64,000 nucleotides of DNA, taken from assembly GCF_016903815.1 (NCBI RefSeq), contig NZ_CP069973.1, one strand, 5' to 3'. Source of the stretch: Escherichia coli. GTDB lineage: Bacteria; Pseudomonadota; Gammaproteobacteria; Enterobacterales; Enterobacteriaceae. The stretch's first letter is position 1, and every line of letters begins with the position of its first letter. Shown here in pieces: positions 54,822 to 60,590 of this stretch. Under the pieces are notes generated by a model. The model ran no database searches, was not told the origin of the DNA, and saw only the letters and a program-made list of their open reading frames with translations. Both the position numbers and the translations under genes were made by a program.

Positions 54822-57043
54822 AGCGTTGGTTCCCCCGGCGGCAGCGGTTCAGCCGGGGCCGCGCCCGGAGCAGGCAGCACCTGATAAGTCTGTACCGGCG
54901 CGCGAACACCCGCCAGGTCGAAATGTTTTTTCACCTGGCTGTCGAGGGCAAAGCGGACCGTCCACTGTTTGAGTGGCAGCGTGGTGAACGAAACACGCAG
55001 TGTAAATGCGGTATTGCTTAAGCCGACAATCCCGGCAAAATTCGGTTCACCAATAATCAGCCCGCGAATTTCTTCGTTTTCCATCAATTCCGCTACCGCA
55101 TCTTTCAGTGCCTGATTGGCTTTATCAGCATCTTCATGGCGATCAACATCGTAATTTGCCACCACCGAACCAATGCCGCGGACGAAGTTAGCAAAGGTGG
55201 TTATCGAAGACCATGGAATGATGTGATACGCCCCGGTATCCTGACGCACGCCCACGGAGCGAATCGACATCCGTTCCACAGTGCCGGTCAACGGCCCGAT
55301 AGTCACCAAATCTCCAGTGTTCATGCCGTTTTCAAACTGAATAAATACCCCGGTGATAATATCTTTCACCAGCGTTTGCGAACCAAAAGAGATAGCCAGC
55401 CCCAATGCACCGGCACCTGCCAGCAATGGCGCGATATTAACGCCGATTTCCGACAACACAATCATGATGGTGATGGTACTGATAATCACCGCCAGCGCGT
55501 TACGGAACAGCGTCAGCAGGGTACGCGTACGGGCGCTGGGTAGTGGGCGGCCATGAATATCCGAAGCCAGCCTGTTTTCGATCAAACTGGCGAGCACCGT
55601 CCAGCCAACCGCCGAGAAGAAAAGAATGAGTGCGATACGGATCAGGATATCTACGGTTTTCTGCCCCGCACCGTTTTGCAGCCAGTTCCAGAAATCGAAC
55701 AATCCCCATGCGCTCAACAGCAACATTACCGCCACGCAGACGGTCAGAATACGCGCCGTTTTCAGCGCCGCCGAAAGCCAGCCATTCAGCCGTTTTTGCA
55801 ACTCCGGATAGTTACGCTGAGTATGTGGCGAGAGGGTGATGGTTTTCGCCAGCCAGCGGGAAAACATACCGGAAACAAATGCTGCGATACCAATAATCGC
55901 CAGGCTGCGCACCGTTGCACCCATCATAAATTTCAGGCTGTTGCCCGGATCGAACAACGAAAAGAAAAACAGCACGATAAAATAGGCGCTTGCCAGCCAG
56001 TGCCACACCAGCGCAAAGGCGCGGATAAACAAGCTGAAAAAGGCCAGCGAATGCTCCGCGAAGTTGAGCAAATGCTGGGTAATCTCTTTTTTATTACGAA
56101 AGATCAGGTACAACGCCCAGACGGTCATGCACAGCATAATGATGACGTTCGCCAGCGCACCTATCTGTACATTCACCTGATTAGAGATAATCGGCACGGC
56201 GACAATCAGGCCATAGCCAATCAGGCTGCTTAACCAGCTCAGGCGACGACTCCAGTAACGGGCGGTCTCGTCATGAATCGTGAACGGGCGCAGTTCCGCC
56301 ACGTTTGGGCAAAAAATCAGGCGTAGTACGGCTTTGAAAAATTCAATCAGGGCAAAGGCGCTGAGAAACAAACTTTGTTGGAAAGCGATGGTGCGACTGC
56401 CCGCATTCAGGTTGTCGCTTAAAACCTGACCGACAAATAATGTCAGTGCCAGTAACAGCAGGTCGATAATAAACGCCCCGATAATCATCGCCGGAAGCTG
56501 CAACCAGTTGCTGCGTTCGCGATTTTTTTGCCGCGCCCACTGGCCCATTTTGCGATACAGCGGCAGTGCGCACAGACGAATCAGCCAGTAAAAACCAAAC
56601 ACTAATACCGCTAACATTGAAAAATGGGTCAACGCATTGCTGAAGGTTTGTGGATTAAACGGCTTATGCGGGGAGCCGGTGATATTGCGATAAAGTTGTC
56701 CGAAGCGGGCGGAAAGGGCTTCACCATAATGGCGGCTGACTTCGGTGACTTTTTGCAGCACGGTTTGCTCTTCAACCAGCGTCGGCGGCACGATCTTCGG
56801 TACGGGTTCCGCAGGGGGCGTCGCGGCGACGGTGCGCAACTGGTCGATCAACTCTTTACGCGAGGTGTCATTATCCAGCACATCCGCCAGTGCGCCATAG
56901 GCCGCTTTTTTTTGTTCGATATCCGGTTCAGGGGCCGGTTCAGTCGTTGAGTCCGTTGTCGTTGTGGTTGTAACGCCGGGTATGGATACCGCGTGGGCAG
57001 GTGCGCCCAGCAGGCAGAAGAGGATGAACAGGATCCACCGCAT
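54818..57043 (-). CDS. ybiO: MscS-family mechanosensitive channel
   Basis: ORF track 750 aa; ATG at 57043 ([25 protein letters not shown]) gives 741 aa. Confidence 0.93.
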
Positions 57044-57159
57044 GACTCCTCCAGTGAGAAAACAGAGCAAAAAGATAAGTATAGATGCTGGGGGAGGAGC
57101 GATTTTAAATGAGAGGAATCTGGTGTGCCTCCCTTTCGGGGGAAAGGGAGGCTGAGAAG

Positions 57160-57882
57160 TTAAGAGACGTGCTGCAAAAATTCCTGCAAGCGCTGGCTCG
57201 GTGGGTTCTTGATCAACACCTGCGGATCGCCATCTTCCGCAATCCGGCCTTTGTCGATAAAGATCAGGCGCGAAGCTACTTTCTCGGCAAAACCGATTTC
57301 GTGTGTCACGATCACCATCGTCATCCCTTCTTCAGCCAGATCCTGCATAACCTTCAGCACTTCATGGCGCAGTTCCGGGTCAAGAGCGGAAGTCGGTTCA
57401 TCAAACAGCATCATTTTCGGCTTCACCGCCAGCGCGCGTGCGATCGCCACACGCTGCTGTTGACCACCAGAAAGTTCGGAAGGGTAGTGATGTGCACGTT
57501 CTGCCAGACCGACTTTCGCCAGCAGCTCACGCGCCAGTTTTTCCGCCTCTTCTTTGTTCGCGCCACGCACGCGTAGCGGACCAAACATGACGTTTTCCAG
57601 CGCCGTCAGATGCGGGAAGAGGTAAAACTGCTGGAACACCATACCTGCTTCCTGGCGAATCAGGCGCTCGTCAACTTTCGGATCGTTAACCTTCAGGCCA
57701 TCAACAATCAGATCGCCGGAAGTGATTTCTTCCAGTTTGTTGATGCAGCGCAGCAGGGTCGATTTACCGGAACCGGACGGCCCGATAATCACCACGACTT
57801 CGCCCTGAGCAATGTTCAAATCGATATTGTGCAGCACCTGGGTTGGACCAAAATGCTTGGAGACGTTTTTAAATTCAATCAC
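57160..57882 (-). CDS. glnQ: glutamine ABC transporter ATPase
   Basis: 240 aa ORF, Walker [10 protein letters not shown], signature LSGGQQQR. Confidence 0.97.
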
Positions 57883-58538
57883 AGGATTTTCATCCTTCTT
57901 TCCAGACGACGCAGAATAAAGCTCAGCACCAGGGTAATAATCAGATAGAACACCGCCACGGCGCTCCAGATCTCAAGGGCGCGGAAGTTACCGGCAATAA
58001 TTTCTTGCCCCTGACGGGTCAGTTCCGCCACGCCGATAACAATAAACAGCGAGGTGTCTTTAATGCTGATGATCCACTGGTTACCCAGCGGCGGCAGCAT
58101 ACGACGCAGTGCCAGCGGTAAAATGACGTAGCGAATGGTTTCCCAACGTGAAAGACCAAGCGCCAGTCCTGCTTCACGAAAACCTTTGTGGATAGACAGC
58201 ACCGCACCACGCGTGATTTCCGCAATGTACGCGCCGGAGTTGATCATGATGGTGACCACCGCCGCAGTAAACGGGTCGATGCGTAAGTCGTTAAACGCCA
58301 TCGGCAGGGCGAAATAGATAAACATCACCTGGACGACGATAGGTGTGCCGCGGATCACTTCAATAAAGACCAGCGCGACGTGGTTGGCTATCCAACCACC
58401 GAAGGTGCGTGCAAAACCTGCCAGCAATCCGATCACCAGACCGCCAGCCAAACCGAGGACCGAGATCCACAGGGTCATTTTGGCACCTTCAATCAGAAGC
58501 GGAATGGCAGGCCAGATGGCACTCCAGTCAAACTGCAT
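57879..58538 (-). CDS. glnP: glutamine ABC transporter permease
   Basis: 219 aa membrane ORF. Confidence 0.97.
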
Positions 58539-58587
58539 ATGTTGTTCCTGTTACCGTGGTGTAAATAATCAAATTCAGGGTAATTAA

Positions 58588-58668
58588 TGGCCCCGGAGCG
58601 GGTTTGCGCCCCTCACCCTAATCCTCTCCCCAGAGGGGAGAGGGAACTGCCAGTGCGCCTTACAGGCG
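58588..58668. repeat. GC-rich palindromic intergenic repeat (BoxC/REP-like)
   Basis: CCCCTCACCCTAATCCTCTCCCCAGAGGGGAGAGGGAACTGCC with dyad CTCTCCCC-AGA-GGGGAGAG between glnP and glnH; family name from memory. Confidence 0.4.
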
Positions 58669-58676
58669 TAGCGTTA

Positions 58677-59438
<762 letters not shown>

Positions 59439-59469
59439 CTATCCACGGGACGATCCCCTGCGTGACATT

Positions 59470-59493
59470 CACATATATGAAAAAATCGTGCCA
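59470..59493 (-). promoter_or_regulatory. sigma-54 promoter glnHp2
   Basis: Minus-strand TGGCACGATTTTTTCATATATGTG (TGGCAC-N5-TTTCA, -24/-12 class). Confidence 0.5.
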
Positions 59494-59565
59494 GTTTTGC
59501 AACTCATTGATTTATCGAGATGCGGTAAAAACGTGATGCACGATTTATAGGGCAATACCCTGAAG

Positions 59566-59597
59566 GTGCACCATTCTGGGGCACCAAACTGGTGCGC
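59566..59597. promoter_or_regulatory. tandem NtrC enhancer sites upstream of glnHp2
   Basis: TGCACCATTCTGGGGCACCAAACTGGTGCGC with GCACCA/TGGTGC half-sites. Confidence 0.5.
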
Positions 59598-59826
59598 TAA
59601 AATTGTGCACTCAACACAGTGATTATTTAGCGTAAAACCTGATGAAAAAACAATCTTTATGTAACAATTGTGTGATGATGTGGATACAAAAAATTTACTT
59701 AATCAGCTGGAGATAGCAGATGAATGCACTAAATAAGTGCGTTGAGGTGGGCTGCAAAACAAAACGGCCTCCTGTCAGGAAGCCGCTTTTATCGGGTACT
59801 AAAGTTCTCCACCATCAGCGATGGAT

Positions 59827-60474
<648 letters not shown>

Positions 60475-60590
60475 TTAGATATATTGATAAGAACAATTCT
60501 TATTTATTTGCTCGCCAGGAATTTTCGGAATAAATATGCTTTTGCATAATTCGATATATAAAGACGGTGTAGAGGAAAAGTAGCGAGAAA

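Follow-up and report, generated by a model that had tools for sequence, protein, structure and literature searches.

A BoxC repeat copy between glnH and glnP of Escherichia coli and its candidate role as a hairpin at the end of glnH mRNA

We have analyzed the spacer between glnH and glnP in a stretch of 64,000 nucleotides of Escherichia coli DNA (the window). Judged by its similarity to known copies, the element in this spacer is a diverged BoxC (PIT/TMECO) repeat, although it misses the strict consensus of the family by one base. We consider it reasonably probable that this copy is co-transcribed with glnHPQ and that its hairpin defines or protects a transcript containing glnH only. The genes dps, glnH, glnP, glnQ and ybiO are encoded here on the minus strand. 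The upstream cistron glnH (58677-59423, minus strand) encodes the periplasmic glutamine-binding protein, and its message ends at the hairpin. It is followed by glnP (57879-58538, minus), the downstream cistron, for the membrane subunit, and by glnQ (57160-57882, minus), also a member of the glnHPQ operon. The glnH-glnP spacer is 138 bp long (58539-58676). Its counterpart in K-12 MG1655 lies at 847120-847257, with the same gene order and spacing as in the window; the two spacer alleles differ at four positions, one of them in the loop of the hairpin and none in the stem.

The hairpin is formed by the arms CCTCTCCCC (58623-58631) and GGGGAGAGG (58635-58643), which are 100% complementary over 9 bp and enclose a 3-nt AGA loop. 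This perfect G+C-rich dyad (58623-58643, both strands) is read in the mRNA as CCUCUCCCC-UCU-GGGGAGAGG, about 33 nt after the glnH stop codon. The dyad pattern occurs once in the 64-kb window and in none of 100 dinucleotide-preserving shuffles. The spacer RNA as a whole folds with -50.1 kcal/mol (z = -2.6 against shuffles). An earlier sequence-only reading had described a GC-rich dyad between glnH and glnP; it is present, and is one base pair longer than first written. The interval given for it, 58588-58668, does contain the repeat but is somewhat wide, as the part common to other copies extends over approximately 58607-58660; the remainder is locus-specific flank with two small palindromes. 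A small flanking palindrome at 58654-58670 (both strands; CGCCU-GUA-AGGCG on the mRNA strand, 5-7 bp) overlaps the edge of the repeat directly after the glnH stop codon. It is strain-specific, intact here but broken by three substitutions in K-12 and most sampled alleles, and thus is unlikely to be essential.

Other candidate features of the region were set aside. In the minimum free energy fold, the GUUCC directly 5' of the hairpin pairs over 5 bp with the Shine-Dalgarno region of glnP; the K-12 fold lacks this pairing. A plus-strand ORF of 166 codons (58587-59087) begins within the repeat region, but it is antisense to glnH and almost certainly spurious. A covariance-model search against Rfam at E <= 1 gave no match to the spacer. 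The only matches in 57000-60500 were weak ones below the gathering score, to ctRNA_p42d (26.9 bits) and STnc70 (19.9 bits). They fall at 59754-59844 (minus) on a hairpin with a U run downstream of dps, which is the dps intrinsic terminator; a strong K-12 Term-seq 3' end at 848340 matches this terminator (Adams et al. 2021, PMC7815308). The same data include, in one condition, a 3' end at K-12 position 848057 (window ~59476, minus) that falls within the 5' leader of glnH, 53 nt before its start codon, and may be a premature 3' end or a leader-derived RNA (Adams et al. 2021).

The repeat family has been named more than once. BoxC reportedly goes back to Bergler (1992), with a list of 32 copies by Bachellier (1996), and the PIT elements are said to go back to Hoyne and Maher (2000 and 2002). 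To our knowledge, no function is accepted for BoxC repeats beyond a link to genome instability. The same element, called BoxC first and PIT next, is now called TMECO, with the consensus CCCTCNCCC-N3-6-GGGNGAGGG-N3-GGGNGAGGG and 23 MG1655 copies catalogued in Table 1 of Holder et al. (2015, PMC4666352); copies with TTA as the second loop are type A, and those with CCG type B. The three-block core of the glnH-glnP copy (58610-58644, minus) reads CCCTCTCCC / CTCTG / GGGAGAGGA / TTA / GGGTGAGGG, followed by G, and is of type A by its second loop. Over 36 positions of the mRNA strand, the core CCCTCTCCCCTCTGGGGAGAGGATTAGGGTGAGGGG is identical at 34 to copies 9, 16, 19 and 22 of Holder's table. The commonest copy, "type A mm" (CCCTCGCCCCTCTGGGGAGAGGGTTAGGGTGAGGGG), differs from it at the other two. 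The first difference is in block 2, GGGAGAGGA, which ends in GGA instead of GGG, and this is where the strict consensus is missed. The second is a G to T change in block 1. The commonest BoxC hairpin has an internal G.A mismatch, and the T in the glnH-glnP copy repairs it to give a perfect stem, with a predicted RNA hairpin energy of -18.3 kcal/mol compared with -15.7 kcal/mol for the commonest hairpin. A relaxed TMECO pattern, in which the last base of block 2 was freed, has a single match in the window and none in shuffles. Holder's table of 23 MG1655 copies has no entry near 847,200, presumably because GGA breaks the strict consensus.

The boundaries of the repeat were estimated from ten K-12 type-A copies, taken from the published coordinates and aligned with 70-nt flanks. 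Similarity among the copies runs from about 17 nt left of the first C block to just past the third G block, which places the unit in the window at about 58607-58660 (minus; ~54 bp with approximate boundaries, GCGCACTGGCAGTTCCCTCTCCCCTCTGGGGAGAGGATTAGGGTGAGGGGCGC on the mRNA strand). On the left, GCGCACTGGCAGTTCCCT of the window can be aligned to the pattern G.GCAC.G.AC.GTCCCCT shared by the K-12 copies; on the right, conservation is weak in every copy. The assignment to BoxC that had been suggested from the sequence is thus borne out by a match to the published consensus at all but one base, by the 34 of 36 identities to the commonest K-12 copy, and by flanks like those of ten K-12 copies. The glnH-glnP copy shares with the family its succession of C block, loop, G block, TTA and G block, its intergenic position and its multiple copies. 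It is unlike typical copies in that block 2 ends in GGA and the hairpin is perfect, and unlike published descriptions of BoxC in that a mapped RNA 3' end is tied to its hairpin. All ten K-12 copies fetched are intergenic, as is the copy in the window, and they occupy varied intergenic sites. Two canonical K-12 copies are also intercistronic, one between pstA and pstB (locus 996-1030), another ABC-transporter operon with BoxC between cistrons, and one between yihS and yihR (locus 953-987).

The spacer sequence is far from unique. Compared by blastn with 5426 complete E. coli genomes, it matches 60,885 places, which are spread over 5425 of these genomes; the median genome has 11 such places and the richest 24. 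This settles the copy-number check proposed in the earlier reading; no second copy was found within the 64-kb window. In a pattern scan of one genome per species, a three-block motif of this kind is also abundant in Polaromonas, Mitsuaria, Contendobacter and unclassified MAGs (at least 120 stretches among the matches listed, none of these from Escherichia), which agrees with the wide distribution published for the BoxC family. On sequence grounds, its abundance in Polaromonas and Mitsuaria points to a BoxC-like family spread far beyond the Enterobacteria. In these two genera the motif often occurs in closely spaced inverted pairs, about 30-110 bp apart, that resemble the A+B pairs known from E. 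coli.

This copy is linked to RNA by a 3' end mapped in K-12 MG1655 by Term-seq at NC_000913.3 position 847200 on the minus strand (Adams et al. 2021, PMC7815308, supplementary file 1). The sequence strings in this file are 61 nt long with the 3' end at position 51, a convention that was checked against the SgrS terminator. Each of the three growth conditions shows the end at 847200; for two of them the mean read counts are 30,332 and 130,459, compared with 89,018 and 681,605 for the neighboring dps terminator (PMC7815308), so that the counts of the two ends lie within about 3-5 fold of each other. The sequence around the end is ACACCTGTAAAACGCACTGGCAGTTCCCTCTCCCCTATGGGGAGAGGATTA|GGGTGAGGGG, where the bar marks an end exactly 4 nt past the stem. 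Transferred through the collinear K-12 locus, the equivalent in the window is 58619 (minus; ...GGGGAGAGGAUUA-3'), and the third G block GGGTGAGGGG (58609-58618, minus), the proposed third strand of an intrastrand DNA triplex, lies downstream of it. The end was classed as "orphan" only because 58 nt separate it from the glnH stop codon. Thus a stable stem-loop lies 3' of a cistron and an RNA end, mapped in K-12, follows it closely, as would mark a protective stem-loop. Two more BoxC-type hairpins have Term-seq 3' ends exactly 4 nt past the stem, at 3781065 after lldD (copy 17 of the table) and at 4231270. Both are transcribed in the opposite repeat orientation to the glnH-glnP copy. As the 4-nt spacing is found in both orientations, the hairpin and not the G-rich third block would be the common determinant. 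The sequence patterns searched gave no Term-seq 3' end for the pstA-pstB and yihS-yihR copies. Within the literature open to search we found no published link of BoxC to RNA 3' ends or to a role at the RNA level, and the link described here may be new.

A precedent for such a role is the REP element between malE and malF, an intercistronic mRNA stabilizer that leads to more binding protein than membrane subunits. In glnHPQ mRNA, the first two BoxC blocks form the 9-bp G+C hairpin. The polycistronic transcript would be cut in an AU-rich stretch further downstream, or would occasionally stop there, after which 3'-to-5' exonucleases would trim it back and stall at the stem. The protected glnH-only message would stay while the glnPQ RNA decays, and binding protein would come to exceed the membrane and ATPase subunits in amount, as with the REP at malE-malF. 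With the hairpin upstream of the site of the sRNA GlnZ, glnH would also be shielded from GlnZ-triggered silencing of glnPQ. We infer the stalling of exonucleases as opposed to termination, the effect on the glnH:glnPQ ratio, and the insulation from GlnZ. In five E. coli ABC-transporter operons, 3' structures stabilize the binding-protein cistron, and it is always that gene that is stabilized (Dar & Sorek 2018, PMC5927463). Like the structures of that study, the fold described here is stable, lies at the boundary of a substrate-binding-protein gene with the other transporter genes, and has a Term-seq 3' end directly after it; unlike most of them, which lie inside the downstream coding sequence, it is a repeat element in a spacer. 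The glnQ-glnP-glnH operon was analyzed in the genome-wide survey but is not listed as differentially decaying (Dar & Sorek 2018, PMC5927463). The suggestion of the sequence-only reading that the stem-loop stabilizes glnH mRNA is partly supported: the 3' end in K-12, a hairpin at ten of ten loci and an invariant stem give it real, though indirect, support, while the operon is missing from the list of those regulated by decay.

The part of the proposal that concerns GlnZ involves the glnP leader. The conserved leader CACCACGGUAACAGGAACAACAU (58539-58561, minus) holds the Shine-Dalgarno sequence AGGA and the GlnZ target CCACGGUAAC (58559-58550, minus) at the glnP ribosome-binding site. The best duplex with the 25-nt GlnZ seed has a predicted energy of -18.4 kcal/mol (58560-58549), and the site is 50 nt downstream of the BoxC repeat. 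GlnZ represses glnP by pairing just 5' of the Shine-Dalgarno sequence (Walling et al. 2022 preprint; Miyakoshi et al. 2022, PMC9731577). In a Salmonella GlnZ pulse, glnP and glnQ decreased more than 4-fold and are the only genes of the operon named at that level in the accessible text, where glnH is not (PMC9731577).

The copy is nearly fixed in the species. A 221-bp stretch across the spacer recurs at no less than 97% identity in 5401 of the 5426 E. coli genomes, with K-12, O157:H7 and ST131 among the lineages represented. The allele of the window itself (at least 99% identity) is a minority type found in about 713-857 of the 5426. Among ten E. coli alleles, a small sample that is not phylogenetically independent, all 18 stem positions are invariant, whereas the 3-nt loop occurs in four forms (UCU, UAU, CCU and GCC). 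The third G block is polymorphic in the same sample, with a G>A change and a 1-nt deletion, and the segment from the repeat to the glnP start is almost invariant. An invariant stem with a variable loop is suggestive of selection on structure, although palindrome stems may also be maintained in ways that do not involve selection at the RNA level.

Comparison with other enterobacteria extends this picture. Nine other loci were retrieved through GlnH protein clusters: Salmonella, E. marmotae, Citrobacter sedlakii, Klebsiella pneumoniae, Enterobacter, Kluyvera, Pseudescherichia, Serratia, and a metagenomic scaffold ("albertii-like") whose GlnH equals an E. albertii protein. The order rhtA-dps-glnH-glnP-glnQ is found in seven of the nine, and the Enterobacter and Serratia loci have different genes upstream. 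BoxC is absent from the orthologous spacer (locus coordinates ~2248-2390) of all nine. In place of BoxC, each carries some other GC-rich hairpin, which starts 13-24 nt beyond the glnH stop codon; the hairpin energies range from -16 to -28 kcal/mol, and the spacers fold with z-scores between -2.3 and -3.9. REP-type hairpins (GCCCGG...CCGGGCCTACA) are present in Salmonella, Citrobacter sedlakii and Pseudescherichia, and closely related forms in E. marmotae and the albertii-like scaffold; the hairpins of Klebsiella, Enterobacter, Kluyvera and Serratia have non-REP sequences. The Salmonella spacer is 145 bp long and has additional structured sequence. Besides the flanking gene ends, only the last ~23 nt before the glnP start (CACCACGGUAACAGGAACAACAU) align across most loci, Enterobacter and Serratia being divergent there. 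Overall, the structure after glnH is conserved across the loci examined while its sequence has been replaced repeatedly. The REP-type spacer allele of E. marmotae has no match in any E. coli genome searched. As BoxC is absent from the relatives and the marmotae allele from E. coli, the repeat was gained once the lineage had separated from E. marmotae but before E. coli diversified.

These REP-type hairpins in relatives bear on the description of the E. coli element as REP-like, which does not hold for its sequence: a scan of the 64-kb window with the REP consensus (GCCKGATGCGRCG...CGYCTTATCMGGCCTAC) at up to 3 mismatches gave no match, and the core of the E. coli spacer has no resemblance to REP. 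The stretches CCGGGGCC and GCGCACTGGCAG beside the core were considered as remnants of an ancestral REP split by the BoxC insertion; this was rejected as unproven, since the left stretch aligns with the BoxC unit found at other copies. The likeness to REP stabilizers (malE-malF, and REP325 in yjdMN) is one of arrangement. Common to both are a site just 3' of the binding-protein or upstream cistron, a GC-rich stem with no U run, an RNA that ends shortly beyond this stem, and a proposed block to 3'-to-5' exonucleases. Unlike REP or BIME elements, the glnH-glnP copy belongs to an unrelated sequence family and forms a single hairpin with no BIME array. We know of no RAYT transposase that goes with BoxC. 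A broader proposal, which we put forward tentatively and hold to be somewhat less probable than its contrary, is that transcribed BoxC copies act as REP-like hairpins that define or protect RNA 3' ends, and that E. coli swapped an ancestral REP-type hairpin for BoxC with the function kept.

Among the other explanations, the one that survives best is that the repeat is neutral and selfish, having spread or been captured into a tolerant intergenic spot, and that decay leaves the RNA 3' end as an incidental intermediate that does not affect expression. In the function of flanking genes, in orientation and in distance to ORFs, BoxC copies are unbiased (Holder et al. 2015, PMC4666352), and other copies occur in many sorts of intergenic site. 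The same paper cites earlier assays in which PIT elements had neither promoter nor terminator activity and no effect in vivo (PMC4666352), which would suit a neutral element, as does the absence of glnHPQ from the list of differentially decaying operons (PMC5927463). The hairpins in the many genera examined here could partly reflect a permissive spot as well, repeats being inserted where they are tolerated. A neutral copy would, however, hardly be expected to be near fixation (5401 of 5426 genomes), to vary in its loop but not in its stem, or to carry a repair of the mismatch typical of its family. Every other locus examined also has a hairpin at this place despite the turnover of the spacer, and the 3' end is strong and found in all conditions. 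We therefore regard a neutral repeat as unlikely, at something like one chance in a handful.

A second explanation is that the element is a partial terminator or pause site, an attenuator at which some RNA polymerases stop after glnH, so that the 3' end is a primary product. An end only 4 nt past a strong GC stem would fit this, REPs can be partial terminators, and in Enterobacter, Kluyvera, Pseudescherichia and Citrobacter U-rich runs follow the equivalent hairpin, as in leaky intrinsic terminators. The E. coli stem, however, is followed by AUUAGGGUGAGGGG, which has no U run, and no hairpin-plus-U-run terminator was scored on the mRNA strand of the spacer. The bicyclomycin-sensitive (Rho) regions listed by Adams et al. 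(2021, PMC7815308) have no entry for glnP or the spacer, and PMC4666352 cites assays in which PIT elements lacked terminator activity. It is these points, the missing U run and Rho region and the inactivity of PIT elements as terminators, together with the precedent of REP and of the ABC-transporter operons, that favor trimming over termination, and we consider an attenuator on its own to be improbable, more so than a neutral repeat. By analogy, a mixed role as stabilizer and leaky terminator is possible at glnH-glnP; REP325 is a stabilizer as well as a partial terminator.

The proposal published for TMECO, that an intrastrand triplex or cruciform in the DNA stalls replication and promotes rearrangement, is very improbable as the explanation here: triplex formation has been observed in vitro with TMECO oligonucleotides, strains differ by more rearrangements at TMECO loci (PMC4666352), and eight of nine triplets appear possible for the glnH-glnP copy from its sequence, but DMS footprinting in vivo did not support the triplex (PMC4666352), block 2 departs from the triplex consensus, the third block is polymorphic where the hairpin is not, and the site is not an unstable one, since 5401 of 5426 genomes (99.5%) keep the locus intact and collinear. 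A rearrangement at the repeat was seen in a single case, strain B2.3 (NZ_CM185023.1, 3120-3360 of the retrieved locus), in which the spacer breaks in the 3' arm of the hairpin (CCTCTCCCCGGCGGGGA|ATAGTG, window equivalent ~58639) and leads into an IS21-like ISEc10 element (istA/istB), so that glnH is no longer adjacent; this IS21-family junction would suit a DNA-level element.

The repeat family is a known one and the mechanism a textbook one from malE-malF, so that the gain from this analysis is incremental and the result an ordinary one. If a glnH-only transcript is indeed defined or protected by the BoxC hairpin, this would account for a strong 3' end that is classed as "orphan" in the Term-seq data published for E. 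coli. It would bear on the ratio of binding protein to membrane subunits in ABC-transporter operons and on the escape of glnH from GlnZ silencing. One copy of BoxC, a family described mainly as a DNA curiosity, would gain a concrete candidate role at the RNA level, and the locus would be a case in which one repeat family gave way to an unrelated one while selection acted on structure only.
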